DNA of 64,000 nt, taken from NCBI GenBank assembly GCA_964590435.1, contig CAZPWT010000008.1, positions 83,880 through 147,879 of the forward strand, in the 5' to 3' direction. Below the pieces are notes generated by a model that worked only from the letters and a program-made list of their open reading frames with translations, had not been told where the DNA came from and made no database searches. The position numbers were made by a program, and so were the translations under genes. Origin of the DNA: an uncultured Planctomycetia bacterium (GTDB lineage Bacteria > Planctomycetota > MHYJ01 > WSZJ01). Positions 5,852 through 60,879 of this stretch are shown here, in pieces (within the stretch, counting starts at the first letter, position 1; every line of letters starts with the position of its first letter).

Positions 5852-6373
5852 TCAGCGAGAGCTCCGCCCAGACTTGGCCGGTGGGGTGCCAGTCCACCAC
5901 CGTGCACAAGCAGTCACCTCGTCATAGATTTCGGCGATCGACTTCCCCGAGCGGTCGTCCAACCACTCGCGCCACGGCTTGTCCGGACCGCCCGGCTTCT
6001 GGTTGAGATCGAAGAATCCGAATAGCTCCTGCAACACCTCGTGACACCGCGAACGCACGGAGCATGGATGCGTCTGGCCAGGCATTTCCGAGGAGAAAGA
6101 TGAGGCCTCTGGGTCGCAGATCCTGAGATCCTCAAGCGAGTCAACCATTGCGAGCACAACGGCCGGATCTTCTGTTCGTTCGAAGCGTTCGAAAATCTCT
6201 CTCCGGCTCTCAAGACTTCGCGTTCCGTCCGTCGACGCATCAATTTCCATCCGGGCCATCCAGTACGCCTGCTCGTCGACGGGATGCCCGGGCCAGTGAT
6301 CGGAACCCGGAGCTGTCGCGCAACCTGTTACCGCGGACAGCATGAGAGAGAGCATCGAACAGCGCCTCTTCAT
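5852..6373 (-). CDS. Hypothetical lipoprotein
   Basis: MKRRCSMLSLMLSAVTGC lipobox; ATG overlaps malQ stop (ATGA); longer ORF 5852..7450 is an out-of-frame overlap with malQ. Confidence 0.55.
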   Translation of the reverse strand: MKRRCSMLSLMLSAVTGCATAPGSDHWPGHPVDEQAYWMARMEIDASTDGTRSLESRREIFERFERTEDPAVVLAMVDSLEDLRICDPEASSFSSEMPGQTHPCSVRSRCHEVLQELFGFFDLNQKPGGPDKPWREWLDDRSGKSIAEIYDEVTACARWWTGTPPAKSGRSSR

Positions 6374-7860: not shown

Positions 7861-8085
7861 GGCGTGGAAGTGTAGCAGCGCGGCGGGCAGTGTGGCGCAG
7901 TAGCCCTCGGCCTGGGAGAAGGCCGTGTTCAGGCCGTTTGCCTCCAACGAAAAACGGCATGAACACGGAAAGCACAGAGGGACGGAAAGACACGGAACGG
8001 TCAGTCTTAGGATAGAAGCGGATGGGATGGACTTCCGGCAGGTAGGCAGGAGACCTCGCAGGCCTGAGGCAAGTTACGGCCGCGC

Positions 8086-8430
8086 CTACGACCCGGCGGC
8101 GAACGATTCCCCTGAAGCGAGGCGCTTGACCACGGCGTTTGCGCAGATCTGGTACTGCGAAAACGCGGGTGTGTCGTCCTCAACGTACGCGATTTCGGCG
8201 ACATGCCACTCCGTCCCGCACTCGCGATTCGCAGCCTCGACTCCTGCCATGACCGCAATCTGCAGCTGAGCCTCGTCTATCGGATTGTGTCTGCCGGGAT
8301 GGACAGGCGGCAGCTTCACGATCATCACCCCGAACGCAGGCTGCTTGCTCAGGCGAAGCCCAAGGAGGTTGTGCGTCGGCCCGGTGATCCTCGAAACCTG
8401 GAAACGACCGTCAACGATGCTGAAAGTCAT
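8086..8430 (-). CDS. Hypothetical protein
   Basis: 114-aa ORF in a lower-GC patch, 4-bp overlap with upstream gene; no recognisable motif. Confidence 0.4.
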   Translation of the reverse strand: MTFSIVDGRFQVSRITGPTHNLLGLRLSKQPAFGVMIVKLPPVHPGRHNPIDEAQLQIAVMAGVEAANRECGTEWHVAEIAYVEDDTPAFSQYQICANAVVKRLASGESFAAGS

Positions 8431-8786
8431 CGGTCCTCCTGGGTCAGCTCCACCGCCCTCCCGTCCGGATCGCGCAACAGCGCCCTCAAGCCGTTCGGGC
8501 CGCTGTTGGGCTTATTCTCGACGCGCCAGCCCGAGTTCATCGCCGCATTGCAGCAGACCACGACGTCCGGCACGGCGAACCCGAGGCGCGTCGTTGCGTC
8601 CGCAACCTTGCCCTCGGGCAGCGGATGGATCTCCAGCGCCGCCTCACCGGCCTCCGCCGCGAGGTACGCCGGCCCCTTCCCCTTCTGTTCCTCTTCGAAA
8701 TCGAACCCGAGGCACTCGTAGAAATCCCGCAGGTCCTCGAGCTTGTGGGTCTTCAGCACGATCTTCGCGAATTCGGGCATCGTCAC
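8427..8786 (-). CDS. Glyoxalase/bleomycin-resistance (VOC) family protein
   Basis: Small VOC-like protein (EIHPLPEGK..GFAVPDV); overlaps downstream ORF by 4 bp. Confidence 0.55.
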   Translation of the reverse strand: MTMPEFAKIVLKTHKLEDLRDFYECLGFDFEEEQKGKGPAYLAAEAGEAALEIHPLPEGKVADATTRLGFAVPDVVVCCNAAMNSGWRVENKPNSGPNGLRALLRDPDGRAVELTQEDR

Positions 8787-9089
8787 TCCCTGAGGATCTC
8801 ATGGAAACGCTCGCGCCTCTATCTCGCCGTGATGCCCAGGTGGCGGAAATACCCAGTGAGACAGTCACGGGCGAGTTGCGATCTGGTGACCCCCCTGGGC
8901 TCGCGCCGTGCGGTCCAGCAACTTCAGGAGTGAGTCCGGAATCTGCGCCGAAACTGACTTCATTGGTCGCCGCTTCGCGGTCTTTGCTAGTCGCATTCCG
9001 CGATTCTATGCCAAGCGGAACACGACTTCGCGATTGACCATGCTTCCTGGCACGCCGCGCGCCGCCATGCAGCGACCCTTTCGGCTGAA

Positions 9090-9779
9090 GTGCTTACAAT
9101 GCCGGTCGAAATGGAACTCCGCGAACTGCGAGAGAAACTGGCCGACGCAAGAGCTCGCCTCGAATCGATCCTGCGACGCATGGCGTACTCGAGAGTCGAG
9201 CAAGCAGAGTACGACCGTGCGGCGGGCGAAGTTCATGAACTCGAACGGTCGCTCGCCCGGGTACTCGGCGAAGAGTTTGCGACGACGATCGACTTTCCCG
9301 TGGAGTGGGATCGAGGCGCGCCGCTGCCTCACGTCATCGCCGCCGAAGGCCGGACATTCCTGATATTCCTCGTCTCGGAGCCGGATCCGAACTGGGACGG
9401 CACCTACGTCAACGTGAAGGATCCCGCCGACCACCAAATCGAGCCTTACGCACTGGTGGAGTTCCTCCAGTGCACCTCGATGAAGCTGGGTTCACCCAAC
9501 GACGAAGTGTTTGCGGGGCACCCCCTCCGTGACCGCGGCATGGAACCCTACTGCGCGCAGGAGGTTCTGAATTCAAGATGGATTGCGGAGATCGAAGCGA
9601 TCAACCGGGTGCACGCCGGGTACAACCCCGCGCGCTGGAAAGACCTGAAGCACTACATCTTCTGGTTCCATGACTCCACGTTCGAATGCATCGCCGAAGG
9701 TTTTCGCGTGGAGACATTCCGAGAGTCGATGGCCGAGGTAGTCGCTCGCGCGTGCGATCGACTGATCGACAGGTCCTGA
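9090..9779 (+). CDS. Hypothetical protein
   Basis: 229-aa ORF with protein-like composition in a lower-GC region; no recognised domain. Confidence 0.45.
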   Translation: MLTMPVEMELRELREKLADARARLESILRRMAYSRVEQAEYDRAAGEVHELERSLARVLGEEFATTIDFPVEWDRGAPLPHVIAAEGRTFLIFLVSEPDPNWDGTYVNVKDPADHQIEPYALVEFLQCTSMKLGSPNDEVFAGHPLRDRGMEPYCAQEVLNSRWIAEIEAINRVHAGYNPARWKDLKHYIFWFHDSTFECIAEGFRVETFRESMAEVVARACDRLIDRS

Positions 9780-9786
9780 GTCGCTC

Positions 9787-10209
9787 CTACTCTCCGATCA
9801 CCTTCACGAGCACCCTCTTCGCCCGCCGCCCGTCGAACTCCCCGTAGAAGATCTGCTCCCACGGGCCGAAGTCGAGCTTTCCCTTCGTGATCGCGCACAC
9901 GACTTCGCGCCCCATGATCTGCCGCTTGTGGTGGGCGTCGGCATTGTCCTCGCCGGTGCGGTTGTGGTGGTAGCGATCGGGGGACGCGTCGAACGGCGCG
10001 AGCTGCTCGAGCCAGCGCTTGTAGTCCTCATGCAGGCCGCGCTCGTCGTCGTTGATGAAGACGCTCGCGGTGATGTGCATCGCGTTGACCAGGCAGAGGC
10101 CTTCCTTCACGCCGGATTTCGCGACGACCTGCTCGACCTGGGGAGTGATGTTCAGGAAGTCCATGCGGGCGGGGATGTTGAAAGTGAGGTACTCCGTGGT
10201 GGACTTCAT
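9787..10209 (-). CDS. YjbQ/UPF0047 family protein
   Basis: [65 protein letters not shown] matches UPF0047; start at internal ATG. Confidence 0.8.
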
Positions 10210-10365
10210 CGGCGTCCTGCCCTCCTTGCGAGTGGTCCTGGCTCCGCCATCGCGGCGGCTTGGGCGGCGGCGGCCGGTTCGCGAATCGCCGAGCTGACAT
10301 AGCATTTCGAACGCTGTCCCTGCCTCGATATACTCTCCCGATCGATTCTATCTCTGGAGTTCACG

Positions 10366-13300
10366 ATGCCGCGCATCTCAGCAGGTCTGCTCCTCGTGGC
10401 GGTCCTTTCACGCTCCGCTTTCGCCCAGCAGTCGCTTCCGGAGGCGAAGCTCAAAGAACTCAAGGAAGCGACCGTCTTCGTCAAGACGGACACTTCCCGG
10501 GTTCATGCCACGGGGTCGGGATTCCTGATCCTGAAGGACGGGGACACAGGTTACGTCGCGACCAATGCGCACGTCGTCGAGGCGCCGGCCGGGGCGAACC
10601 GCGCTGTCACGGTGGTATTCCTGAGCGGGACAAAGGACGAGTATTCCGTCACGGCAACGCCTGTCGGGGAGGACGCGGATCGCGACCTGGCGATCCTGAG
10701 GGTGCAGCGGGCCGGGTTGCCAAAGCCGCTCAGCCTTTCGGCGAAAGCAAAGCTGGTGGAGACCCTGCCGGTCTTCATCCTGGGATTCCCGTTCGGCGAG
10801 GCGCTGGCGACCAGCGAGAAGAGCCCCGCGATCACGATCGGCCGCGGATCGGTGTCGAGCCTCCGGAACGGGGACGACGGCGAGATCGCGATCGTGCAGA
10901 TCGACGGCGACATCAACCACGGCAACAGCGGCGGGCCCATCGTCGACTCTTCCGGCGCCCTCGTGGGGATTACGGTGGCCAAGGTGGAAGGAACCGGGAT
11001 CGGGTTCGCGATCCCGCCGCGGGAGCTGGACGGCATGCTCGCGGGACGGGTGATTTCCGTCGATTTCTCGGAACGATCGAACGGCGCAGGCTCCATCAAG
11101 CTGGAAGCAACCGTCAAGCTGATCGACCCGCTCGGGAAGTGCAAGGGAGTGTCGGTGCTTTTTGTCCCGAAGGCGAAGGCGAACCCGGTGGGAAAGCCGG
11201 ACAAGAACTGCTGGCCGCGGATCGGCCCCGATGCGCTGGAGTTCCAGCTCAAGGTGCAGGGATCGGTCGCGAAGGGCGAGGTCTCGCTGAAGGGGGAACC
11301 GGGAAGCCGCGTCGAGTACCTCCAGCAGCCCCGGTTCCTCGGGGCCGACAGCAAGCCGGTCTTCCTGCAGCCATCGGACTTCGTAGCGGATTTTTCGGGG
11401 GCGCCGGCGGCGGTCAAGCCGGAGAAGCCGGGGGACACGAAGCCGCCGGGAGATTCCGGCGGCGACTGGCTCGGGGGAGGCGACAAGCCGGGGGCCGACA
11501 AGCCGGTGGCCGAAAAGCCGTCCGCCTCGGGCAAGAACCTTGCGGGAAACCGGCGGACCATCCTCGACGCAACGGCAACCGAGATCGCGCTCAACTCCAA
11601 GGACGTCCTGCCGTGCCTCTTCTGGTCATCCGACGGCAAGTTCCTCTTCGCGACGGAGCGGAACGGCACCCTCCGGAAGATCTCATGGCCTGGGCTTGAC
11701 GAGGATCGGTCTCTATCCACGGGAGGGACCTGCGCCTGGGCGGGGCTGACGAAGGAAGGAGTCCTGGTGATCGTGGACTCAATCCAGGAAGGCTGGCTGC
11801 TGGACGCGGGAACGCTGGAAATCCGGCGCAAGTTCCCGGTCGCCGCCTCTCGCCGGTTCGCGTCCTCCCCCGCATCCTCCTACGCCTTCTTCCAGCGCGA
11901 ACGGGACAATCTGGACGCGTTCGACCTGAGGTCCGGGAAGCTCGCGAAGACCTACGTCGACCGTGATGTCGCGGCGCAGGCCCAGAAAATCCGGAAGCAC
12001 AAAGAAGGTGTCGTCCTCTCCGACTTCAATTTCCCCACGCTGACGCCGGACGGGAAGTACCTGTTCTGCATCGGATTTGAATGCATGCACCGCTTCAAGG
12101 TCGACGGCGCGAACCTGGTCTACGAGGAAATGGGGCCGCGGCTGGGCAACAACCCCCAGGGGATCCGGATCAGCAGCGATTCGAAGTACGTTTGCATGCT
12201 CTCGGGCGGGGGCAATTCGAATCCATCCGATCACCCGAAAGCCGGTGGCTACTCGACCTACATCTACAAGGTCTCGGACCTGCTCCAACCGGTAATGTTC
12301 ATCGCCTCCGGCGCCTATCCCCGCACTCTCGATTTCGACAAATCGACCGGCCTCATCTACGCACAGAACTACGAGTGCACCCTCATGACCTTCGGTGCCA
12401 AGGGTGCAAAGGAAAAGGAGTACGCCCTCAAGACGGGAGAGACGTCCCAGATGCTCTCGCACCCGTCCGGCTCCAAGGCGATCGCGCTGACGGAAGCCAA
12501 GCTCTGGGCGATCGAGCTGGGCTCCACCAACGCCCCGGTGGTCGGCGGCGCGAACGCCCCGCAGCCCGTCAAACCCGAGGTCACACCGCCGGCGGCCAAT
12601 GCGGGAGCATTCCTCGACATGCCGGATGCCCTGCAGCCGGCTGCGCGCCTCGCCCTCCGTGCTTCCGTCCCTGCGCTTCATCTCTCGCCCGACGGTGAGT
12701 TCCTCTTTGCCCTCGACATGTCAGAAGGGCGCGTCCTGAAGATCCGGGCCTCCGATCTCGGCATCGCGGCCTCCGCGGAGGTCTCCGCGGACTGCGCCGC
12801 GATGGCGGTCAGCGCGAAGGGCGATCGCCTCTACGTCGCCGCTCGCGGAGCCCGCGCGCAGAGCCAGGGCGACAACCCGAGGTGGAAAGGCCGCCTGACC
12901 GTGTTCGATGCGGCGCTCGCCAAACAGGGAGAGTTCGAGTTCGACGGCGACCCTTACGATCTTGCCGTGACGAATTCGGGCCTTGTCCTCGTCGTCGCCT
13001 ACTCGGATGCAAGCGCCTCGCTGCTGATCGACACGGCGCGCAAAGTGCCTCCCGTGAAGATCGGCTCCTCGCCCACCCACGGCTTCGTCCGCACCCACCC
13101 CGACCAGGCTCGATTCTACTTCGGGACCCTCGCCAGCTCCCCGCGCGACTTCGGCGCGCTCTACCTCACCGGGGACGCAAACACGCCGAACCCGGACCTG
13201 CCGAGCGTGCGGTACTCGAATCGCGGACGCCAGGAATTCGGAGGCCCGTTCGTGATTTCGCCGGACGGATCGCTGCTGTTCGGTTCCCACGGGGCCGTCC

Positions 13301-19063: not shown

Positions 19064-20038
19064 CTACTTCTTCTCCCGCAGCCCCTCGAGTTCTGCCTCG
19101 ACGCTCCGGATGATCTCCGTGTTCTTCATGCCCGAGGCCATCGCGGCCTCGAGGTGTCGCTGGGCGTCGTCCAGTCGACCTTCGCAGACTGCTTTCGACC
19201 CGGCCAGGAAGCGCCCCTCCGACTTGCGCAGGCTGTCGATGTTCTCGATCGACCCCTTCGCTTCCGCGAGCAGGGCCTCCTCCGTCACGTCCCCGAGGAG
19301 AAACAGCCCATAGGACTCCACCCGATCTCCCCGGGGTTTCCTCCCTTTCAACCACTCCCGCAGCTCCCCGTCCGCCGCCTCCTTCTTCCCAAGCCGCGCC
19401 TTGAGGATCCAGATCCGCAGCCGCGTGTAGTCCTGCCCCTCGCTCTCCAGCGAAACGCTCTTCTCCAGGTCCGCCAGCGCGTCTTCCCATTCGCGAAGGT
19501 TGTAGAGGCAGAGGCCGCGGTTGAGGTAGGCGCGGGCGTAATTCGGGTTGAGCTGAAGGGCCATCGTGGCGTCCTTGAGGGCGCCGTCGGCATCGCCGTT
19601 GAGGCGCTTCGCGAACGACCGGTTGTTCCACGCGAGCGCCAGGTCGGGGTCGAGGCGCAGCGCGGCGTCGTAGGAAGCGATGGCGCCGGCGAGGTCGCCG
19701 GAGTCGGCCTTGGCGAGGCCGAGGTCGTTGTGGAGGCCGGCGTTTTCGGGGGCGAGGGTGAGAGCCTTGTCGAAGTCCTCGAGAGCGCCCTTGAGATCCC
19801 CAAGGCGTCGGCGTATCAACGCGCGGTTGTGCCACGCTGTGTCATCCAGGGGATCGGATTCGATCAGCCGGGTGCAAGCCTGCTCGGCCCGCTTGAGTCC
19901 GTCCGTGGAACACCTTTCCCAACTGCGGAGGGTGTGCGGCTCAGGGAGCGGATCGTCCGCGAACGCAGGAATCACCAGGGCCAGGACCACGAGGGCACGA
20001 AGCATGTCCCCATCATCCCCCGTGCCGTCCCTTTTCAT
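19064..20038 (-). CDS. Secreted TPR-repeat protein
   Basis: Several TPR units (AWHNRALIRRRLGDLKGALEDFDKAL, YNLREWEDALADLEKS); ATG 20038 preceded by an AG-rich tract; alternative start 20005 (MLRALVVLALVIPAFA). Confidence 0.7.
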   Translation of the reverse strand: MKRDGTGDDGDMLRALVVLALVIPAFADDPLPEPHTLRSWERCSTDGLKRAEQACTRLIESDPLDDTAWHNRALIRRRLGDLKGALEDFDKALTLAPENAGLHNDLGLAKADSGDLAGAIASYDAALRLDPDLALAWNNRSFAKRLNGDADGALKDATMALQLNPNYARAYLNRGLCLYNLREWEDALADLEKSVSLESEGQDYTRLRIWILKARLGKKEAADGELREWLKGRKPRGDRVESYGLFLLGDVTEEALLAEAKGSIENIDSLRKSEGRFLAGSKAVCEGRLDDAQRHLEAAMASGMKNTEIIRSVEAELEGLREKK

Positions 20039-20070
20039 TTTTCCTTTTTCCTTTTTCGTTTTTCCTTTCC
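20033..20070. repeat. Pyrimidine-rich TTTTTCC-type tandem tract (AG-rich on the minus strand)
   Basis: tttcatttttcctttttcctttttcgtttttcctttcc, in the divergent region between the TPR and PDZ genes; read on the minus strand it gives repeated GGAAAAA units upstream of the TPR start. Confidence 0.6.
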
Positions 20071-23424: not shown

Positions 23425-23485
23425 CCCTTTCCCTTTCCCTTTCCCTTGCCCTCCCTCGCAACCCGCAACCCGCAACTCGCAACTC
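23425..23485. repeat. Microsatellite-like tandem repeats (CCCTTT)n and (CNCGCAA)4
   Basis: ccctttccctttcccttgccctccctcgcaacccgcaacccgcaactcgcaactccccc in the intergenic region between the two esterase genes. Confidence 0.6.
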
Positions 23486-23515: not shown

Positions 23516-25117
23516 ATGCTCCGCACCTTCTTCACGCTGGCCGCTCTCGCCAACCTTGCTCTCGCGCAGGACCCGGGTCCGAAAATCACCGAGCCGATCG
23601 CCGTCGACGGCGGTCAAATCGGCGGCGGCGAAGAATCGCCGATGGGCGGCTCGCGGGCGTGGAAAGGAATCCCCTACGCCGCTCCCCCCGTCGGCCCGTT
23701 GCGCTGGAAGCCGCCGCAGCCCGTCCCGCCCTGGCAGGGCCTTCTCATCTGCTCCGACCTCGGCCCCGCCTGCCCCCAGCCCGCCACCGCCCTCGCGCTT
23801 CCCCTCCAGCTCAACACCCAGGCCGAGGACTGCCTGCGCCTGAACATCTGGAGCCCGGCGAAGCGCGTGACGGACCGGGTGCCGGTGCTCGTCTGGATCC
23901 ACGGGACGTGCGGCGGATTCGCGCGCGGGTCGGCGGGTGAGCCGGTGTACGAGGGCGAAGTCCTCGCGCGGCGCGGCGTGGTCGTCGTGACGTTCAACTA
24001 CAGGCTCGGCGTGCTGGGCTGGCTCGCGCACCCGGCGCTGTCGAAGGAATCCCCCGACAAGCTCTCCGGCAACTACGGCCTGCAGGACCAGATCGCGGCG
24101 CTGGAGTGGGTGAAGCGGAACATCGCGAAGTTCGGCGGGGACCCGGACCGGGTGACGCTCGGCGGACAGTCGGGCGGCGCGGCGTGCGTCGCGGCACTCA
24201 TGGTGTCCCCTCGCGCGAAGGGACTGTTCCACCGGGCGATCCTGCAGGGCGGCGGCCCGAGCTGGGTCCGCCGCCGCCTCCGCGGCGACGCGGCCTCGGG
24301 CGAGGCCCAGGGAGAGGCGCTTCTTGCCGCGCTGAACGTCGCGAGCGGCCCGGCCAACGCGCTCGATATCCTGAGGTCGCGCTCCCTCGAGGAGCTGTTC
24401 GCGGCGGCGAAGACGGCGGAAGGGCCGTTCTCGGAGGGAGAGCAGTGGGGGCCGCTGGTCGACGGCGCGTTCCTCACGGACGACCCGTGGACGCTCTGGC
24501 ATTCGGGGAAGCAGGCCGACGTGCCCGTGCTCTGCGGCGGCAACGCCGAGGACGGGTCGATCTTTCCGCTTCCCAGGGGCGTGGTCGACGTGTGGCAGTA
24601 CAAGGACTGGCTCAAGGCGGCGTTCCCGGGCGACCCGGCGGCGATCGCGGCGGCGTACGCGCCGAAGCTGCGCGACGACGTCCCGCGGACCGTCTCCGAC
24701 CTGACCTCCGACGCGCTCGCCGTGGAGCCCGCGCGCTTCGCCGCCCGCGCCCAGACGGCGCTCGGCCGGAAGGCGTTCCTCTACGTCTTCACGCGCGTGT
24801 CGCCGGGGGCGGAGAAGCGGAAGATCGGCGCGTTCCACGGCGCGGAGACGGCGTACGTGTTCGGCAACATGGCGGGCGCCGTCGGGCTCGACGAGGTGGA
24901 CCGGCAGCTCGCGCAGAAGCTGTGCGACGCGTGGGCGCAGTTCGTGAAGACCGGCGACCCAAACGTCCCCGACCGCGTCGACTGGCCGGCGTACGACCCG
25001 AAGACCGACGCCTGGCTCGAGGCCGGCGACGACCTGCGCGTCACGAAGGAGTACCGCAAGGCGCGGCTCGACGCGCTCGCCGCGGCGCACGAGAAGGAGG
25101 CGGCGCCGCCCAAGTAG
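23516..25117 (+). CDS. Carboxylesterase type B family (para-nitrobenzyl esterase-like)
   Basis: Signal peptide; GGESPMGG..WKGIPYAAPPVGPLRW, CLRLNIWSP and GGQSGGAA are carboxylesterase-B hallmarks. Confidence 0.8.
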   Translation: MLRTFFTLAALANLALAQDPGPKITEPIAVDGGQIGGGEESPMGGSRAWKGIPYAAPPVGPLRWKPPQPVPPWQGLLICSDLGPACPQPATALALPLQLNTQAEDCLRLNIWSPAKRVTDRVPVLVWIHGTCGGFARGSAGEPVYEGEVLARRGVVVVTFNYRLGVLGWLAHPALSKESPDKLSGNYGLQDQIAALEWVKRNIAKFGGDPDRVTLGGQSGGAACVAALMVSPRAKGLFHRAILQGGGPSWVRRRLRGDAASGEAQGEALLAALNVASGPANALDILRSRSLEELFAAAKTAEGPFSEGEQWGPLVDGAFLTDDPWTLWHSGKQADVPVLCGGNAEDGSIFPLPRGVVDVWQYKDWLKAAFPGDPAAIAAAYAPKLRDDVPRTVSDLTSDALAVEPARFAARAQTALGRKAFLYVFTRVSPGAEKRKIGAFHGAETAYVFGNMAGAVGLDEVDRQLAQKLCDAWAQFVKTGDPNVPDRVDWPAYDPKTDAWLEAGDDLRVTKEYRKARLDALAAAHEKEAAPPK

Positions 25118-25130
25118 CGGCCCGGACCCC

Positions 25131-26735
25131 ATGCGACTGCGCCTCGCCCTCCTGCTCTTCCTCGCCTCCACGACCGCCGCCGAGGAGCCGTTGCGCGACC
25201 GCTGGATCTACGTCTCGCGCAACCTCTGGGTCGACAAGAACGTCGACGAGGTGGAAGCGCTGTTCCGGCGCGCGGCGGCGGCGGGCTACAACGGCGTGCT
25301 GCTGTCGGACTCGAAGTTCTCGCGGCTGGAGGACATGGACAAGCGGTACTTCGCGAACGTCGACCGCCTGAAGAAGGTGGCGGCGGAGCTGAAGCTGGAG
25401 ATCGTGCCGGCGGTGTTCCCGATCGGGTACTCCGAGGGACTGCTGTCGCGAGACCCCGATCTCGCCGAGGGGCTGCCGGTGCGGGACGCGCTGTTCGTGG
25501 TAAAGAACGGCGAGGCGCGGGTGGAAGCGGACCCGGCCCTGGCGCTGAAGGGCGGCGACATGGCCGACCTGAAGGCCTGGGACTGGAAGGACGAGACGGT
25601 CGTGGCGGAAGACGGCGAGGCGAGAGTGACGGACCCGAAGGGAAAGAACGCGCGGATCGTGCAGAAGGTCAAGGTCGCGCCGTGGCGCCAGTACCACATC
25701 TCGGTGCGCGTGAAGACCGAGAACTTCCGCGGCGAGCCGCGCGTCGCCGTGCTCGCGGGCGAGCGGTCGCTCAACCACGCAAACCTCGGCGCCAAGCCGA
25801 CGCAGGACTGGACGACGCACCACGTCGTCTTCAACTCGCTCGACGCGACCGAAGTCGGCGTCTACCTCGGCGCCTGGGGCGCGGATACCGGCTCGCTCTG
25901 GTGGGACGACGCGACGATCGAGGAAGCGGGCCCGGTGAATCTCGTCCGCCGCGAAGGCGCCCCGCTCATCGTCACCGCCGACGGCGGCCTCCCCCTCGCC
26001 GAGGGCAAGGACTTCGAGCCGCTCACCGACCCGAAGATGGGCACGGTCCCCTGGCGCGGCGGCTTCGAGGTCTGGCACGAGCCCCCCGCCCTCAAGACCA
26101 GCCTCAAGGAAGGCACCCGCCTCCGCGTCTCGTACTTCCACGCCCTCACCGTCCACGACGGCCAGGTCATGGTCTGCCCTTCAGAGCCCAAAACCCTCGA
26201 TCTCCTCCGCGACCAGATGAAGCGCGTCCACGCCGCGTTCGGAGCGAAGGCCTACTTCATGTCCCACGACGAGATCCGCGTCATGGGCTGGGACGACTCC
26301 TGCGCCAAGCGCGGCCTCGACGCCGGCGCGATCCTCGCGGACAACGTGAAGGCCTGCACGAAGATCGTCCGCGACGTCGCCCCCGGCGCCCGCATTTTCG
26401 TCTGGAGCGACATGTTCGACCCGCACCACAACGCCCACGCGAACTACTACCTCGTGAAGGGCGACCTCAAGGGCTCCTGGGAGGGCCTCGACAAGGACGT
26501 GATCGTCGCCTGCTGGTATTTCGACAAGCGCGCCGAGAGTCTCAAGTTCTTCGCCGACCGCGGGCACAAGACGCTCATCGCCGGCTACTACGACGCGAAC
26601 CCGAAGCAGATCCTGAAATGGCTGGAGGCGGGCAAGGCCGCCGGCGGAGTCGAAGGCGCGATGTACACGACGTGGGAGAACAAGTACGAGGACATGGAGG
26701 AGTTCGGGGCGCTGCTCGGTAAGTCGGGTCGGTAG
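25131..26735 (+). CDS. Secreted hypothetical protein, possibly glycoside-hydrolase-like
   Basis: Signal peptide MRLRLALLLFLASTTAA; 534 aa; function inferred only from context next to hydrolases. Confidence 0.55.
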   Translation: MRLRLALLLFLASTTAAEEPLRDRWIYVSRNLWVDKNVDEVEALFRRAAAAGYNGVLLSDSKFSRLEDMDKRYFANVDRLKKVAAELKLEIVPAVFPIGYSEGLLSRDPDLAEGLPVRDALFVVKNGEARVEADPALALKGGDMADLKAWDWKDETVVAEDGEARVTDPKGKNARIVQKVKVAPWRQYHISVRVKTENFRGEPRVAVLAGERSLNHANLGAKPTQDWTTHHVVFNSLDATEVGVYLGAWGADTGSLWWDDATIEEAGPVNLVRREGAPLIVTADGGLPLAEGKDFEPLTDPKMGTVPWRGGFEVWHEPPALKTSLKEGTRLRVSYFHALTVHDGQVMVCPSEPKTLDLLRDQMKRVHAAFGAKAYFMSHDEIRVMGWDDSCAKRGLDAGAILADNVKACTKIVRDVAPGARIFVWSDMFDPHHNAHANYYLVKGDLKGSWEGLDKDVIVACWYFDKRAESLKFFADRGHKTLIAGYYDANPKQILKWLEAGKAAGGVEGAMYTTWENKYEDMEEFGALLGKSGR

Positions 26736-26776
26736 CTGGTGGTCAGTGGTTGGTGGTCAGTGGTAACGACGACGAA

Positions 26777-26805
26777 AACGGCCACGAGGAGCCCTCGTGG
26801 CCGTT
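26777..26805. terminator. Hairpin, probable bidirectional intrinsic terminator
   Basis: Perfect 13-bp stem AACGGCCACGAGG / CCTCGTGGCCGTT with 3-nt loop, T-rich flank on both strands, at a convergent gene junction. Confidence 0.5.
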
Positions 26806-26862
26806 CTTGTCTCGCGTTTGGATCGGGCCTTGCCCGTCCACCAACCACCGACCACCGACTCC

Positions 26863-27162
26863 CTACCCCTTTTCCGGCCCTCTCGACCCGAGCTCGCGAT
26901 CGATCTCGAGCAGCGCCACGGGATCGTTCTTGATGAGATTGAACTTCGCGACAATGTCCCTCGCCGACTTCTCTTCCTCCACCTGCTCCGTCAGGAACCA
27001 CTGCAGCTCGACCATCAGCGAGAGCGCCTTTTCCTTCTGCGCCAGCTCGTACAGCGCGTCGATCCGCTTCGAAACGCTCAGTTCCTGCGCCAGCGCCGCT
27101 TCGAAGACTTCCTGCATCCCCTTGAACTTCACCTTCGGCTCCGGGATCGCGTTCAGCTTCAC
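26863..27162 (-). pseudogene. Truncated 3-prime copy of the ferritin gene (about 100 C-terminal codons, diverged)
   Basis: About 95% identical at DNA level to 28123..28435 (ferritin C-terminus) with a few amino-acid substitutions; lacks the N-terminal half of ferritin. Confidence 0.6.
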
Positions 27163-27175
27163 GCCGCCGCCGCGG

Positions 27176-27871
27176 TTATGGTCTGAGTTGCCTCTGGCAC
27201 CATCGGAGCGTCTCCCTCAGGCTCTCCACATAGTGGTCCGAGTCAGGAGACTCCGCCCGCGGGCAAGTCTCCGAGGTCTCCCATTTCAGGTCCTTCAGAA
27301 TCTCCTCGAGAACCCCGCAATACAGCCCGATCCAGTCCGGGTCCTTCCACGCATCCAGTACTTCGAGCGCCTTCTCCACCAGGACATCGAGCAACTGCCG
27401 GTGCCGGTCCACATCCACGACGAAGCCTTCAACCATCAGGCATGTCGTGCACTCGTGGCCGAATTGGTCGATCTGGATGTCCGTCATCGGAATCTCGAAG
27501 TTGCGGGCCCTACCGACGTAGTCGAGCAGGAAGACTTCGAACCGAGCAGGTCCTTCCTTTCGATTCCCCAGAAGCCAAAGCATGTGGGTACAGACGCGCT
27601 GGATATGGAAGATCTCCGAGCCTTCATCGAGAGCTTCGATCAGGCGGCGCCCGGACTTGAAATCCACGTCGTTCTCGCCCTGCAACTGCGGCTCGAGCGC
27701 AGCCAGCTCCAGCAGAAGCCTCTGAATTCGCTGGTCTTGTTCGAACTGGAAGTGCGTTTCGCGATAGTCGCCCCACGCATCGGACTTCGTAGGAGTGCGC
27801 TGAATGTCCGCGCAACCGGCAGATACCAGCGAGATTGCAACCAGGAACAGTCGTGTTGAGCACACGTTCAT
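27176..27871 (-). CDS. Hypothetical lipoprotein encoded in a low-GC island
   Basis: MNVCSTRLFLVAISLVSAGC lipobox; perfect AAGGAGG Shine-Dalgarno 6 nt before ATG; GC visibly lower than flanking DNA. Confidence 0.65.
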   Translation of the reverse strand: MNVCSTRLFLVAISLVSAGCADIQRTPTKSDAWGDYRETHFQFEQDQRIQRLLLELAALEPQLQGENDVDFKSGRRLIEALDEGSEIFHIQRVCTHMLWLLGNRKEGPARFEVFLLDYVGRARNFEIPMTDIQIDQFGHECTTCLMVEGFVVDVDRHRQLLDVLVEKALEVLDAWKDPDWIGLYCGVLEEILKDLKWETSETCPRAESPDSDHYVESLRETLRWCQRQLRP

Positions 27872-28033
27872 CCGTTGCCTCCTTGGGAACTCCCACAGTG
27901 GGAGAGACCGCCAAGTAGCCCGTTAGTGGCGTTCGACGCGGAGGGCGCCGCAAGTACCTCCTCCGGCGTCAGCCGCTCGATTCGGATCTGCCGGGACATG
28001 TCTAGTCTCCCCACGCACCGCCGAACAGAGAAA

Positions 28034-28064
28034 CGGCCACGAGGTTCACTCGTGGCCGAATTTT
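28034..28064. terminator. Hairpin terminator downstream of ferritin
   Basis: 10-bp stem CGGCCACGAG / CTCGTGGCCG with 5-nt loop, followed by AATTTT on plus and TTTCTCTGTT on minus. Confidence 0.5.
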
Positions 28065-28116
28065 CCGTGCGTGTTGTCTTGGCCTTTCCTGGCCGCCGGC
28101 CGCTGGCAACTCGCCA

Positions 28117-29205
28117 TTACCCCTTCTCCGGCCCTCTCGACCCGAGCTCGCGATCGATCTCGAGCAGCGCCACGGGATCGTTCTTGATGAGATTGAACTT
28201 CGCGACGATGTCCCGCGCCTGCTTCTCCTCTTCCACCTGCTCCGTCAGGAACCACTGCAGCTCGACCATGAGCGAGAAGGCCTTCTCCTTCTGGGCCAGC
28301 TCGTACAGCGCGTCGATCCGCTTCGAAACGCTCAGCTCCTGCGCCAGCGCCGCCTCGAAGACCTCCTGCATGCTCTTGAACTTCACCTTCGGCTCCGGGA
28401 TCGCGTTCAGCTTCACGCCGCCTCCACGGTTCTGGAGGAAGTCGAGCAGCTTCATGGCGTGCCCGTATTCCTCGGAGCTCTGGATCCGGAGCCACTTCGC
28501 AAATCCGTGAAAGTGGTTCGCGGAGCAGTGGGCGGACATCGCGAGGTAGGTGTAGGAAGAGACGAGCTCGTTGTTGATCTGCTCGTTGACGGCTTCGAGG
28601 ACGTTGGCGGTGACCATGGCGGCTCCTTTGGAGTGGGAGGGTCGGGACGGCGGCGCATTCTGCGTATGGAGGGCGGGAAGCGCAACTCCTTGTAGCGTGG
28701 AGATTTCTGGCCAGCCGTAGCCGGCGTGGGGGAGGTCCTGGGAACCGAAGCGGGAGGACTTCTCGCCGGCGGGGCGGCCGCCGAGGGACTCGTAGAAGCG
28801 GCGGGAGGGGGCGTTGTCGCGGAGGACCCAGAGGACCATGGCGCGGTGGCCGGCGGCAGCCAGGTCGCGGGCGAGGGCGGCGACGAGGGCGCTTCCCAGG
28901 CCTTTTCCTGCAAAGGCTTTGCGGATGTAAATCGCGTACAGCTCGGCGTCGTATTCGGTGTCGAGATCGCGGTTGGGGCCCCCCGTCGCGAACCCCACGA
29001 CTTTGCCGCGCACCTCCGCCACGAACGTGATCGTCCCGGGCGTCGCCAGCCGCTGGCGGCGGCGCTTCTCGAAGTCCGCGTACGACAGCGATTTCAGGTA
29101 AGCGGCGTCGACGATGCCGCGGTAGGCGGTGCGCCACGTGTCGACGTGGACGCGGGCGATCGCCGGCGCGTCGGATTCGGTCGCGGGTCGGATGCGCGGG
29201 GTCAT
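28117..29205 (-). CDS. GNAT N-acetyltransferase and ferritin in one uninterrupted frame (ferritin domain 28117..28617 has its own ATG and RBS)
   Basis: GNAT N-terminus (MTPRIRPATESDAPAIARVHVDTW..GKGLGSALVAAL..RFYESLGG), Pro/Ala linker, then ferritin (VLEAVNEQINNELVSSYTYLAMSAHC..EEYGHAMKLLDFL) with no stop between; AAGGAG 5 nt before the internal ferritin ATG; GNAT ATG overlaps upstream stop. Confidence 0.6.
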   Translation of the reverse strand: MTPRIRPATESDAPAIARVHVDTWRTAYRGIVDAAYLKSLSYADFEKRRRQRLATPGTITFVAEVRGKVVGFATGGPNRDLDTEYDAELYAIYIRKAFAGKGLGSALVAALARDLAAAGHRAMVLWVLRDNAPSRRFYESLGGRPAGEKSSRFGSQDLPHAGYGWPEISTLQGVALPALHTQNAPPSRPSHSKGAAMVTANVLEAVNEQINNELVSSYTYLAMSAHCSANHFHGFAKWLRIQSSEEYGHAMKLLDFLQNRGGGVKLNAIPEPKVKFKSMQEVFEAALAQELSVSKRIDALYELAQKEKAFSLMVELQWFLTEQVEEEKQARDIVAKFNLIKNDPVALLEIDRELGSRGPEKG

Positions 29206-30197
29206 GCGGGGACGGCGCTTCGACTGAGGAAGCGTCCCATCGCGAGGAACCACGGGCAAAGGAGGACGGTGAGGAGGGCGGTGGTGACCTTGATGGCGGC
29301 GAGGGAGTCGGCGAGGCCGGCGGCGGTCATGGCGAAGCCGGTGAGCCAGAGGGCCCAGGTCCAGGCGCGGAGCCAGCGCGGGAGGGCGGGGGTGGCGAGC
29401 GTGAGGACGACGCCGGCGACGCAATAGAGGCCGTTGGCGAAGATCGTGGTGATGAGGCCGAGGGCATGGGGCCAGTGGCGCGGGACTTCGGAAGTGCCGA
29501 ACGCGAGGACCGCTTCGCAGCCGAGGTCGAACGTGGCACCGATGCAGGCGAGCGCGAAGGCGGCGCGACTGGCGCGGGACGACGGGAGGAAGGAGCCCCA
29601 CCAGCCGTAGAACGCGATGAGGGTGAGTGCGCCGAGCATCCAGAGGCCCCAGCTGGCGGCCCAGCGGGGCTCGACGCCCTGGAACCACACGAACCTTTCG
29701 CGGCCGAGGGGGTCCTTCTCGAAGTACGGCGCGATCACGAACGCCATCGCGAACGCCGCGGCCGTGTGGACGACCGCGGCGGCCCACGGCGCGGCGCGGC
29801 GGATCGACGTCCCGATGTCGTGTCCGTCGAGCAGCCGCAGACCGAATGGCAGGAAGCGCGCGAGGGACGTGAACACGGGGACGACCAGCAGCAGCGGGGA
29901 CGCGCCGCGGGAGACGAGAAGCGCCCAGAGCCCCGCGTCGGCGGCGGACGCGACGAACCCGGCGAGCGCCGCGACGCCGTGCCACTTCGGGCGGAACGCG
30001 GCGAGACAGAAAACCGCCGCCAGGGAGACATGGAAGCCGCCGTAAACGCGCGCCCCAAGCTCGAGCCCGGCGTCGCGCCAAAGCAGCTGCCGCACGCCCT
30101 CGAACGCCAGGATCGCCACCAGGGCAAGACAGGCGCTGATCGCGGCCGCATGCGCGAACACGAACGCATGGCATTCCTCGCGCCGCGGATGGCTCAT
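29202..30197 (-). CDS. Multi-pass membrane protein, hypothetical
   Basis: Several hydrophobic helices; stop overlaps GNAT start (ATGA); start chosen at internal Met (ORF extends to 30320). Confidence 0.55.
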   Translation of the reverse strand: MSHPRREECHAFVFAHAAAISACLALVAILAFEGVRQLLWRDAGLELGARVYGGFHVSLAAVFCLAAFRPKWHGVAALAGFVASAADAGLWALLVSRGASPLLLVVPVFTSLARFLPFGLRLLDGHDIGTSIRRAAPWAAAVVHTAAAFAMAFVIAPYFEKDPLGRERFVWFQGVEPRWAASWGLWMLGALTLIAFYGWWGSFLPSSRASRAAFALACIGATFDLGCEAVLAFGTSEVPRHWPHALGLITTIFANGLYCVAGVVLTLATPALPRWLRAWTWALWLTGFAMTAAGLADSLAAIKVTTALLTVLLCPWFLAMGRFLSRSAVPA

Positions 30198-30598
30198 GGC
30201 CGGGCGGCTACTTCCGCCCTTCCTTCCGCTTTGCGAACTCCCCCGAGCGCGCGACTGCCTCGTCGAGCGCCTCTGCCCGGAGGACGTTTCCGCCGCGCCG
30301 TTCGCAGAGGGGCGCGGCATGTGCGGTGCGCATAGAAGTTCCTCAAGGAGTCCTGGGCCGGCGACGATAGCACGGGCACAAACGCCTCCACAAAGTCGAG
30401 CTGCATGTCTCGTTCCACGGGGTCCTTCGCGGAAGCGCGAGAGGCGGACCGGGGGGTCGAGCGGTCGGGGCGAGCGCAGCGACGCCGCCCGCCGTTCGGC
30501 GGCGTCGCGCAGCGAGGTCCGACCGCCGACCCCCCGGTTCGCCTCTCGCGCTTCCGGTGGATTGACATGCGCGCCCCCGGTCCCTCAGACTCCGCCGC

Positions 30599-51563: not shown

Positions 51564-52843
51564 GACGTGAACACCTCCACGACCTTGCGGAGGGCGGCCT
51601 CGAGGGCGAGGGCTTCCTCCGGAGTGTTGTAGAACGCGACGGAAGCGCGGGCGGTGGCGGGGAGGCCGAGGCGGGTCATGACGGGCTGGGCACAGTGGTG
51701 GCCGGTGCGGATGGCGACGCCCTCGCGGTCGGCGATGGTGCCGATATCGTGGGGGTGGATGCCCTCGAGGACGAAGGAAGCGACGCCGGCCTTGTCCTTC
51801 GCGGTGCCGACGAGTTTCGCGCCGGGGACGCGGAGGATGGCGGCCTCGAAGGCGGCGAGGAGTTCCTTTTCGCGGGCGGCGATGCGGTCCATGCCGATCG
51901 CCGACAGGTAGTCGATCGCGGCGCCGAGTCCGACGACGCCCTCGATGTTCGGGGTGCCGGCTTCGAACTTCGCGGGGACCTCGGCCCAGGTGGACTTCTC
52001 GAAGCTGACGCTGGAGATCATGTCGCCGCCGCCCTGCCACGGGGGAAGCGAGTTCCAGAGGGCGAGCGGGGCCCAGGCGACGCCGATGCCGGTGGGGGCG
52101 CACATCTTGTGGCCGCTGAAGATATAGAAGTCGGCGCCGATGTCTTTCACGTTCACGGGCTGGTGCGGGACGGCCTGCGCGCCGTCGACGAGGACCGTCG
52201 CGCCGGCGGCCTTCGCCATCCGGGCGATCTCGCGGATCGGGGTGACGGTGCCGAGGGCGTTCGAGACGTGCGTGACGGCGACGAGCTTCGTCTTCGGCGA
52301 CAGGAGCTTCGCGTACTCCGCCATGTCCAGCTCGCCCGCGTCGTTCATGGGGATGACGCGGATCTTCGCGCCCTTCTCTTCGCACAGCAGCTGCCACGGG
52401 ACGATGTTCGAGTGGTGCTCGAGCGTCGAGAGCACGATCTCGTCGCCCTTCCCGATCCGCGTCCGCCCGAACGTCTGGGCGACGAGGTTGATCCCCTCGG
52501 TGGCGCCGCGGACGAAGACGCACTCGCGGGGATCGGCGGCATTGATGAAGCGGGCGACTTTCTTCCGGACGCCCTCGTACGCGATCGTCGCCTGCTCGGA
52601 GAGCCAGTGCACGCCGCGGTGGATGTTGGCGTTGTGCGATTCGTAGTACTCGCGCACCGCGTCGATGACGACCTGCGGCTTCTGGCTCGTCGCGGCGTTG
52701 TCGAGGTAGACGAGCGGCTTGTTGCGCACGGACTGCTTCAACGCCGGAAAGTCGGATCGCACGGCAGCCCAGTCGACCGGGCGGTCGGGGCCAGGCCCTT
52801 CAACCTTCGACCTTCGACCTTCGACGCCGTTCTCCGTCCTCAA
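51560..52843 (-). CDS. sufS: Cysteine desulfurase SufS (copy 2)
   Basis: RSDFPALKQSVRNKPLVYLDNAATSQKP, SGHKMCAPTG, RTGHHCAQP; TTG start placed to overlap the sufD stop (TTGA), a GTG about 75 nt downstream is an alternative; ORF 51560..53389 has an Arg-rich upstream extension. Confidence 0.75.
   Translation of the reverse strand: MRTENGVEGRRSKVEGPGPDRPVDWAAVRSDFPALKQSVRNKPLVYLDNAATSQKPQVVIDAVREYYESHNANIHRGVHWLSEQATIAYEGVRKKVARFINAADPRECVFVRGATEGINLVAQTFGRTRIGKGDEIVLSTLEHHSNIVPWQLLCEEKGAKIRVIPMNDAGELDMAEYAKLLSPKTKLVAVTHVSNALGTVTPIREIARMAKAAGATVLVDGAQAVPHQPVNVKDIGADFYIFSGHKMCAPTGIGVAWAPLALWNSLPPWQGGGDMISSVSFEKSTWAEVPAKFEAGTPNIEGVVGLGAAIDYLSAIGMDRIAAREKELLAAFEAAILRVPGAKLVGTAKDKAGVASFVLEGIHPHDIGTIADREGVAIRTGHHCAQPVMTRLGLPATARASVAFYNTPEEALALEAALRKVVEVFTS
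52797..52828. repeat. GTCGAAG heptamer tandem array (reverse-complement copy)
   Basis: Minus strand reads ggcgtcgaaggtcgaaggtcgaaggttgaagg, shortly after the sufD stop; same unit as 43002..43026 with one extra copy. Confidence 0.6.
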
Positions 52844-59890: not shown

Positions 59891-60879
59891 GAGTTGCCAG
59901 CGGCCGGCGGCCAGCGGCCAGGGGCCTGGTCCTGATGGCGGTCCTGTCGATGTCGCTCCCCGCGGCGGCGGAGGAGCTCGACCTCGAGGGGTGGTGGAAG
60001 GACGCCTGCTTGTGGGAGGTCGGGTCGAACCTGGAGAAGGTGCCGGCCGCGCGGAAGAAGCTCATTGAAGCGGGTGCGCCTACGATCGAATTCCTCATCC
60101 CGGGGAAACTTGACGCGGCGGACACGATCATCACCCGCGCGCTCAGCATGGTCATCACCGGCATCGCGGGGACGGCTACGCAGAAGCCGCAGAGCCTGGA
60201 GATCCGCGAGAAGACCATCAAGGGGCTGATCGCCGCCATCGACTCGAACCTGCCCAACGTCCGCCGCAACGCCGCCGACCTCCTCGGCCAGCTCGGCGCC
60301 ACCGAGGCCGCTTCGAAAATCGCCGGCCTCCTCGCCGACAAGGACGCCCGCGGCGGCGCGCTCGCCGCCCTCGGCGCGCTCAAGGCCCAGTCCGCCGTGC
60401 CGGCCATCGCCGCCATGGCGCGCGACGCCTCCGTCTCCGAACGCGGGCGCTTCACCGCCGTCTCCACACTCGGCGCCATCGGCGGTCCCGACGCCCAGGC
60501 CGCCCTCCTCGAGTTCCTCGGCGACAAGCTCGCGACCGTGCGCTTCGCCGCCCAGTACGCGCTCGAAGCGATGCGTTCCACCGGGGCGTTCGTCAGCAGG
60601 CTCCGCGACGCCGACCGCCGCGTCCGCATCCACGCTCTCTCCGCCCTCGGCCACCTCGCCGAGCGCTCCACCCGCGCCGACATCCGCCCGCTCCTCGACG
60701 ATCCCGACGCGACCGTGCGCGGCTTCGCGGTGGAAGCGCTGGCGGCGATGCCGAAGCCGTCGGACCGGGCGTGGGTGGACGCGATGCTCGTGACGGAGAA
60801 GGACGAGTTCGTGCGCGGCAAGCTGCTCGAGGCGCGCGGGATCCTGCTCGACCCGCCTCGGCCGGACGGGACGAGGTAG
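59887..60879 (+). CDS. Secreted HEAT-repeat protein, translationally coupled to the upstream repeat protein
   Basis: ATG overlaps upstream stop (ATGA); signal peptide; repeated xxVRxxAAxALGxLG-type HEAT units. Confidence 0.7.
   Translation: MRVASGRRPAARGLVLMAVLSMSLPAAAEELDLEGWWKDACLWEVGSNLEKVPAARKKLIEAGAPTIEFLIPGKLDAADTIITRALSMVITGIAGTATQKPQSLEIREKTIKGLIAAIDSNLPNVRRNAADLLGQLGATEAASKIAGLLADKDARGGALAALGALKAQSAVPAIAAMARDASVSERGRFTAVSTLGAIGGPDAQAALLEFLGDKLATVRFAAQYALEAMRSTGAFVSRLRDADRRVRIHALSALGHLAERSTRADIRPLLDDPDATVRGFAVEALAAMPKPSDRAWVDAMLVTEKDEFVRGKLLEARGILLDPPRPDGTR

Follow-up and report, generated by a model that had tools for sequence, protein, structure and literature searches.

How does a single gene of atypical composition come to lie between a ferritin gene and a second, partial copy of that same gene, when no mobile-element machinery stands beside it? 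The question was raised by a locus in a 64,000-nt stretch of contig CAZPWT010000008.1 from an uncultured Planctomycetia bacterium; this whole stretch is called the window below, and all positions are those of the window. Read along the minus strand from 29205 to 26700, the locus consists of a gene for a GNAT acetyltransferase fused to a ferritin, a spacer, a terminator hairpin (terminator 1), the remnant of a gene here called geneX, a strain-specific open reading frame (ORF) for a putative lipoprotein, a relic of the ferritin 3' end (copy D, its counterpart within the intact gene being copy F), a second terminator (terminator 2) and a convergent gene; almost every element given in the initial annotation of this DNA was confirmed. 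The explanation that we favor, with a probability of about 0.6, is that the insert represents foreign DNA captured at a hot spot, from a related lineage, by one-sided homology, that is, either by a Campbell-type crossover or by homologous combined with illegitimate recombination.

Evidence for the arrangement

One or both junctions of the lipoprotein gene were present on six contigs from six samples, produced by two assemblers. On contig L091 (MEGAHIT, k = 141) the lipoprotein gene ran unbroken into copy D, terminator 2 and the convergent gene with 99.4% identity to the window, and the ends of contigs L002–L004 (Logan, k = 31) fell exactly where the two repeat copies become indistinguishable; ends at such branch points are expected if both copies were present in those samples. 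Since the junctions recurred in this manner, the arrangement is not an assembly artefact of the window contig alone.

Empty and occupied sites in related genomes

Scanning of the GTDB species representatives with the ferritin protein produced five loci in metagenome-assembled genomes of Planctomycetia/Planctomycetota, at 88–92% ferritin protein identity, to which contigs L093–L096 were added by exact look-ups. The sites in L006, L007, L009 and L093–L096, belonging to four species-level lineages, were empty: they contained neither the lipoprotein gene nor a ferritin duplicate, and the stop codon of the convergent gene was located within approximately 80–125 nt of the ferritin stop codon. The arrangement of the window is thus not universal among its relatives. 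In the alignment with L006, positions 30227..28029 and 27177..25130 of the window corresponded to 6373–8589 and 8187–10237, seamlessly on both sides, the only extra DNA of the window being 28029..27178 plus one repeat copy. Within it, approximately 773 bp (27172..27944, minus strand), consisting of a 73-nt leader with the motif AAGGAGG and the lipoprotein ORF, had no counterpart in the ferritin loci of the relatives. The conserved right-hand border of the site is formed by the convergent gene, a glycosidase-like gene of 534 codons on the plus strand (25131..26735).

Two of the related loci were occupied at the spot downstream of ferritin. Contig L005 carried geneX, an ORF of 135 amino acids without a family match (8624–9031), while L008 had approximately 2.5 kb (8513–10961) with an AbiEi/AbiEii-like toxin-antitoxin pair, the AbiEii match reaching 18.7 bits, which is below the Pfam cut-off, and an ORF of 105 amino acids. 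With the interval empty in four lineages and filled with different cargo in L005, L008 and the window, the space between ferritin and the convergent gene is, to judge from these loci, a variable hot spot at which planctomycetes of this clade acquire accessory DNA. The proposal in the initial annotation that recombination at the 3' end of ferritin brought in the lipoprotein gene as cargo is supported by the empty sites, by the atypical composition of the gene and by the lack of a recombinase gene nearby: Pfam scans detected no integrase or transposase domains among the main ORFs tested from approximately 15 to 37 kb, nor in or around the insert, as had been noted before. There were no tRNA genes in the window, and no Rfam family was matched in 25000–30500.

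The two ferritin 3' ends

Copy F, the last 102 codons and the stop codon of the intact ferritin gene (28425..28117, minus strand), was compared with copy D, a relic of 102 codons and a stop codon on the same strand (27171..26863). Homology of the latter to ferritin begins slightly earlier, at the motif AACCG (27177) overlapping the lipoprotein stop codon, so that the relic spans 26863..27177 in total; the aligned part starts 4 nt past that stop codon, in a reading frame other than that of the lipoprotein ORF. The copies differed at 19 of 309 positions (93.9% identity); the length of some 310 bp given previously was right, while the identity of about 95% had been set slightly too high. The ferritin ORF proper (28617..28117, minus strand, 166 amino acids) matched the PF00210 profile at positions 2–141 of 142 (E = 7e-39), i.e., the full domain. 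Copy D, which as an ORF runs from a GTG 13 nt past the lipoprotein stop codon (27162..26863, 99 amino acids), covered positions 69–141 only (E = 1e-13) and falls short of a full four-helix bundle. The repeat is a fragment of a ferritin gene, in line with its first interpretation, and not an independent domain family.

Most of the differences between the copies were silent. Amino-acid changes do exist, as was reported, but no more than three codons are concerned (S/G, F/L and Q/S); the remaining 14 codons that differ, the stop codon (TAA/TAG) among them, are synonymous. The Nei-Gojobori method gave 13.5 synonymous and 4.5 non-synonymous differences, corresponding to a synonymous divergence (dS) of 0.22, a non-synonymous divergence (dN) of 0.019 and a dN/dS of 0.088; the binomial probability of such a split under neutrality is 1.4e-6, and the 309 nt were free of indels and of stop codons. 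Neutral decay of one copy at dS = 0.22 would be expected to bring approximately 13–26 non-synonymous changes (Poisson P <= 0.004). The comparison of each copy with the orthologues in L005 and L006 resulted in dN/dS values of 0.15–0.19; the ratio found between F and D is no higher than that of true orthologues. The spacers next to the repeats, from stop codon to hairpin, were identical in 36 of 61 aligned columns, or 59%.

The mostly synonymous nature of the differences together with the low identity of the spacers indicates that the divergence mostly dates the split of two functional alleles and not the age of the rearrangement, and we conclude that the greater part of it probably accrued while both copies were the 3' ends of working ferritin genes. 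F and D look, as far as their sequences tell, like two functional ferritin alleles brought together, not like a duplicate that decayed in place. The earlier argument, which took the amino-acid changes as a sign that the duplication is not recent, is not supported at a dN/dS of 0.088 and with the adjoining spacer so much more divergent; for repeats of this kind, the number of amino-acid differences gives a wrong date for the event. Polarisation with six outgroups assigned four derived changes to F, all of them synonymous, and seven to D, of which five were synonymous and two non-synonymous, 7 of the 18 sites being ambiguous. The test of the D lineage alone is not robust to AT-biased mutation, while the contrast between coding part and spacer stands.

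Terminators and spacers

The DNA following the two copies differs as well. The intact ferritin gene is followed by a spacer of 58 nt with GCCAGCG-like heptamers and by hairpin 1, GGCCACGAG-TGAAC-CTCGTGGCC, at 28057..28035 with a T-rich tail after it (spacer and hairpin together 28034..28116, minus strand, stem 28058..28034). Hairpin 2 is located at 26802..26780; the stems of both hairpins are identical, while their loops differ (TGAAC versus GGCTC), and hairpin 1 including its loop is identical to the hairpins of L006 and L093. In the empty sites the intergenic region forms a large palindromic complex, in which the terminator hairpin is placed within an outer stem of approximately 30 bp made of heptamer repeats, standing after each of the two convergent genes. 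The folding energy was −87.9 kcal/mol (z = −9.2) for this region in L006 (8498–8645) and −95.5 kcal/mol (z = −9.4) for the terminator-2 region of the window. The heptamers themselves are of unrelated types, GGCGAGC/GCCAGCG in L006 and GGTCGGT in terminator 2 of the window, although in either genome the two arms match each other.

Copy F is followed by heptamers typical of the clade (the type of L006 and L093); the 3' outer arm is missing there, as geneX-derived DNA stands in its place, and the folding z-score is −2.4. Copy D is followed by a complete terminator complex (26722..26870), with the inner hairpin at 26780..26802 and 31-nt outer arms (26726–26756 and 26838–26868) that are both of the other heptamer type; this terminator serves both convergent genes. 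A recent copy made in place would share the heptamer type, and the difference in types therefore argues for two origins. No downstream outer arm was seen beyond the inserts in L005 and L008. The long palindrome could be a fragile site that makes the locus a hot spot.

Several side observations concern the same elements. The native palindrome between ferritin and the glycosidase-like gene measures approximately 145 nt, and its heptamer arms change together between genomes. The 21-mer TTGCCAGCGGCCGGCGGCCAG of the ferritin spacer recurs exactly at 59894..59914 on the plus strand, 31 kb away, within a GCCAGCG array of 4.4 units that stands after the stop codon of another gene, and Tandem Repeats Finder detected further short heptamer arrays at 23455..23485, 20028..20068 and 52797..52825; heptamer arrays may be a genome-wide feature. 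A 19-nt stretch, AATTCGGCCACGAGTG(A/C)AC, is common to the left arm of terminator 1 (28044..28062) and the interior of the lipoprotein ORF (27447..27465), where it overlaps a 9-residue insertion unique to the window protein among its homologues; it may be a chance match (E about 0.04) or have been left by template switching.

The geneX remnant and the leader of the lipoprotein gene

Downstream of terminator 1, and before the lipoprotein gene, stands the promoter-proximal remnant of geneX, approximately 85 nt in length (27945..28030, minus strand). This gene is intact at the same position in L005: the window from hairpin 1 to approximately 27945 aligned to L005 from its hairpin through the upstream region and the first 19 or so codons of the 135-amino acid ORF (ATG at 27999), after which the homology ended. 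A leader ORF of 43 codons, read from the sequence (27868..27999, minus strand), starts at the geneX ATG within the remnant, and its TGA stop codon overlaps with the start codon of the lipoprotein gene (ATGA, 27868..27871). A stop/start overlap of this kind is the usual layout for translational coupling, and its presence here suggests that the lipoprotein gene uses the promoter and the leader of geneX. The strong ribosome-binding site AAGGAGG, already recognized in the initial annotation, is located at 27884..27878, 6 nt ahead of the ATG. The palindrome CTCCCACTGTGGGAG in front of it is likewise present, albeit at 27904..27890, 3 nt from the coordinates first assigned to it, and its fold was no better than that of shuffled sequence (z −0.6).

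The lipoprotein and its homologues

The lipoprotein ORF (27176..27871, minus strand) encodes an orphan alpha-helical repeat protein of 231 amino acids. Its lower GC content, remarked on from the start, was confirmed by 58.5% GC and a third-position GC (GC3) of 0.74, in comparison with a GC3 of 0.88–0.94 in the neighboring genes and 67.9% GC in the whole window. The product is a putative lipoprotein: its signal peptide ends in ...ISLVSAGC, with a Ser at −3 that is non-canonical for the lipobox [LVI][ASTVI][GAS]C, as judged by eye, while a canonical LAAC stands at the corresponding place in the three homologues compared. Conservation among the homologues extends to the lipobox cysteine, to a C-x-H-[MI]-[LV]-W motif and to a number of Leu/Trp positions, and the structural model is a generic alpha-solenoid; a role as a periplasm-facing, protein-binding scaffold is our guess. 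The alignment with the homologues covers both termini, which shows the ORF to be complete and its stop codon to be native; this, like the geneX remnant and the variability of the site, had been missed in the initial annotation.

The protein had no match in Pfam, NCBIfam, PADLOC, PHROGs or the PDB sequence profile, and no homologues were found on PLSDB plasmids, INPHARED phages or IMG/VR contigs; in these database searches it showed no mark of phage, plasmid or defence-system cargo. A word-seeded search of 5.8 billion protein clusters returned the protein itself only, while a full HMMER search of 1.84 billion representatives produced two relatives with end-to-end alignments, P0013 (31%) and P0014 (27%), and a scan of JGI metagenomes added two further short contigs with homologues. 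The relatives thus amount to a handful of distant proteins at 25–31% identity. In L085–L089, the only sizeable homologue loci, two paralogues of host-like GC content (68–70%) stand in tandem between proS and a GT2/PMT glycosyltransferase gene. The pair in L085 (5123–6542), from a genome of approximately 68% GC, encodes 224 and 241 amino acids that are about 33% identical. Ferritin was absent from the available flanks of all eight homologue loci (0/8), and an association of the lipoprotein family with ferritin was therefore rejected; the notion of a ferritin-associated hitchhiker does not hold for homologues that live in other contexts. Closer alleles are on record: P0002 differs from the window lipoprotein by 2 residues and P0003 by 8, and L091 carries two amino-acid changes.

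Circular-looking contigs

The Logan contig L001 has a length of 1284 nt, made up of 1254 nt and a terminal overlap of 30 nt (k−1), which in graph terms is a closed cycle. It contains the lipoprotein gene, terminator 1 and a single hybrid ferritin tail, in which the first 16 variable sites have the D-type base and the 3' end and spacer are of F type. The same kind of hybrid with private single-nucleotide polymorphisms was present in L092 (595–927), from another sample and strain. The structure fits equally a circle excised by crossover in an 80-nt stretch identical between the copies, a tandem amplification or a de Bruijn cycle at k = 31; the 1254-bp contig hints at excision or amplification and may also be an assembly artefact.

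Origin of the insert

The locus has the features of a scar left by a single or one-sided crossover, in that a direct duplication of the target flanks the foreign DNA and one target copy is intact. According to the explanation that we favor, approximately 0.77 kb of foreign DNA with the orphan lipoprotein gene would have come in attached to, or in company with, another allele of the ferritin 3' end, by recombination that relied on ferritin homology on one side. In the donor, a related lineage, the hot spot would already have been occupied by the lipoprotein gene together with the geneX remnant. The event could have been a single, Campbell-type crossover of a circularised fragment that extended from a ferritin 3' end through terminator 1 and the geneX remnant to the lipoprotein gene. 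Equivalently, one homologous end could have been combined with one illegitimate joint where AACCG overlaps the lipoprotein stop codon; the AACCG at 27177, common to the middle of ferritin and to the DNA at this stop codon, is a microhomology of 5 nt, which is compatible with such a joint without being diagnostic. Such an event would keep the ferritin gene intact, with copy F at its end, and leave copy D as a non-functional scar, a ferritin tail that has neither a promoter nor its N-terminal part. The lipoprotein would then be expressed from the former geneX promoter and leader, with a transcript running through copy D to terminator 2, and homologous recombination of the host between the direct repeats would readily delete or amplify the insert. 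A two-step history, in which the duplication came first and one copy was then replaced by an imported allele via homologous recombination, is also possible.

Several observations weigh against the capture of foreign DNA by one-sided homology. No donor genome with ferritin, geneX remnant and lipoprotein gene in this order was found that would fix the direction of transfer and the crossover point. The position of the illegitimate joint exactly at the lipoprotein stop codon has to be taken as a coincidence or as a result of selection. The changes in the D lineage, four of which are GAG to GAA, would by themselves also fit relaxed selection with AT-biased mutation. The scan for sigma-70-like promoters gave no hit for the expression proposed above, and the occurrence of alleles with up to 8 residue differences in other samples implies that the insert is not brand new.

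A tandem duplication of the ferritin 3' end with its terminator in place, by slippage or unequal crossing-over, followed by insertion of the lipoprotein gene and divergence in situ, would account for the fact that each repeat is closest to the other one (94.3%, versus at most 88% to any other genome), for the identical stems of the hairpins after both copies and for the lean of the D-specific changes to AT, as in an unselected copy. It remains an unlikely history in view of the low dN/dS and of a reading frame free of indels and stop codons at such a dS, of the drop from 94% identity in the coding part to 59% in the contiguous spacer, and of the match of the F spacer and hairpin loop to those of other species while the heptamer type of D differs on both arms. 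The signature of purifying selection in both copies and the truncation of geneX would also follow from an ancestor with two complete, selected tandem ferritins, in which geneX lost its 3' part and the second ferritin its 5' half in the single deletion-replacement that brought the lipoprotein gene; we consider this improbable, as two ferritins were found at none of the nine related loci examined and more steps are required than for capture by one-sided homology. Selection might instead have kept copy D itself, as a 99-amino acid C-terminal ferritin fragment co-expressed with the lipoprotein: its dN/dS is low, its ORF is intact, with the GTG just past the lipoprotein stop, and the same product is encoded in two more contigs, L091 and L092, whose common lipoprotein allele is not that of the window. 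The chances of this are slim, however, because the fragment lacks the first two helices, with which the N-terminal ferroxidase ligands of ferritin would be missing, because no Shine-Dalgarno sequence precedes the GTG, because the lipoprotein homologues do without a ferritin partner and because divergence before the event already explains the signature of selection. An assembly chimera of two strain haplotypes, with no duplication on any one chromosome, is hardly credible: the window does come from a metagenome-assembled genome and repeats of 94% identity are prone to mis-threading, but the junctions of terminator 1 with the geneX remnant and the lipoprotein gene, of the latter with D, and of D with terminator 2 and the convergent gene are those that recur in the six contigs, and the contig assembled at k = 141 spans the 80-nt identical stretch.

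The circular-looking contigs raise the question whether the 1254-bp unit of ferritin tail, terminator 1, geneX remnant and lipoprotein gene is a small mobile cassette with a circular form, inserting into the ferritin 3' end and excising from it by host homologous recombination or by a recombinase encoded elsewhere, carrying a replacement tail with it. The hybrid repeat of the L001 cycle is exactly what would be expected of a circle excised within the identical stretch, L092 repeats this type in another sample and strain with its own polymorphisms, and the target gene remains whole, as it does when islands integrate at the 3' end of a gene. We nevertheless regard such a cassette as doubtful. 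A tandem repeat whose copies are identical over a length exceeding k = 31 gives the same de Bruijn cycle, so that L001 and L092 may be artefacts, and the contigs from three other samples break exactly at branch points; there is no integrase or transposase nearby, 309 nt of homology at 6% divergence do not resemble an att core, the lipoprotein homologues never adjoin ferritin, and no plasmid or phage relatives of the lipoprotein were found in the databases searched. The same low odds apply to a recombinase-free form of it, a mini-cassette that shuttles at the ferritin 3' end as a 1254-bp circle or tandem array purely by host homologous recombination. If true, it would always carry a replacement ferritin tail, so that the essential target is never broken, and the silent tail would meet selection at each excision, which would explain why both tails look selected.

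The GNAT-ferritin gene

The frame that ends in copy F is a single one of 362 codons (28117..29205, minus strand), in which a GNAT domain (PF00583) reads without a stop codon into ferritin; the 362-amino acid product is on record for the window contig (P0015). The ferritin also matches NF007638 of NCBIfam (E = 1.6e-28), with 99.7 bits below the equivalog cut-off of 178 bits. As the ferritin part (28617..28117) retains its own ribosome-binding site and ATG, both the fusion protein and free ferritin may be made. The fused frame is also open in L005 (7308–8501), L006 and L093 (4331–5437), with 368–372 amino acids in the relatives, and it persists through in-frame linker indels in four species-level lineages. 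L007–L009 have an in-frame stop codon upstream of the ferritin ATG and no GNAT-ferritin fusion.

Comparison with known systems

The locus provides a clean natural case of a single foreign gene fixed beside a core gene without mobile-element machinery, in which a diverged partial duplicate records the mechanism. It also flags a very small, unannotated lipoprotein family (alpha-solenoid, C-x-H-[MI]-[LV]-W) and a hot spot bordered by an unusual palindromic terminator. The current understanding is unchanged by it, and its value is mainly descriptive, with the circle or tandem array as an additional lead.

Islands and integrative elements that insert into gene 3' ends (of tRNA, tmRNA and some protein genes) provide the target with a substitute for the end that they displace. 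The arrangement described here is similar in that the target is intact and the displaced original 3' end forms a direct repeat on the far side. It differs from a site-specific integrative element, however, by having neither an integrase nor short near-exact att repeats: the repeat has 309 nt with 19 mismatches, and one gene makes up the whole cargo. Chromosomal hot spots, a concept from bacterial pangenomes, are places of horizontal transfer between conserved core genes, and the present site resembles them as one interval between conserved genes with unrelated cargo in each lineage (empty in four, geneX, AbiEi/AbiEii or the lipoprotein gene). Unlike here, turnover at hot spots usually leaves no duplication, both crossovers being located in the flanking core genes.

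Homology-facilitated illegitimate recombination was reportedly first described in the naturally transformable bacteria Acinetobacter, S. pneumoniae and P. stutzeri. It shares with the window the combination of one homologous anchor with one illegitimate joint, here a putative one at AACCG or, counted across CCA-AACCG, with 8 of 9 nt in common, and an insert of approximately 1 kb. Its classical products combine an insertion with a deletion of recipient DNA and have 3–10 bp of microhomology at the joint (PMC3240628), in contrast to the duplication found here.

Campbell-type integrants are comparable as well. In conjugation experiments with E. coli, a single crossover of a circularised fragment produced partial duplications of the homologous locus, with 109–950 bp of the lacZ end (PMC3240628). 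A direct partial duplication likewise flanks the insert in the window (309 bp here, 109–950 bp there), one complete copy of the target remains and no dedicated recombinase is needed. The differences are that the event was a natural one, that the copies have diverged by 6% instead of being identical and that a circle is only hinted at by L001 and L092. Taken together, the locus most likely does not represent a genetic system of a new kind but a scar of ordinary recombination that holds an orphan cargo gene.

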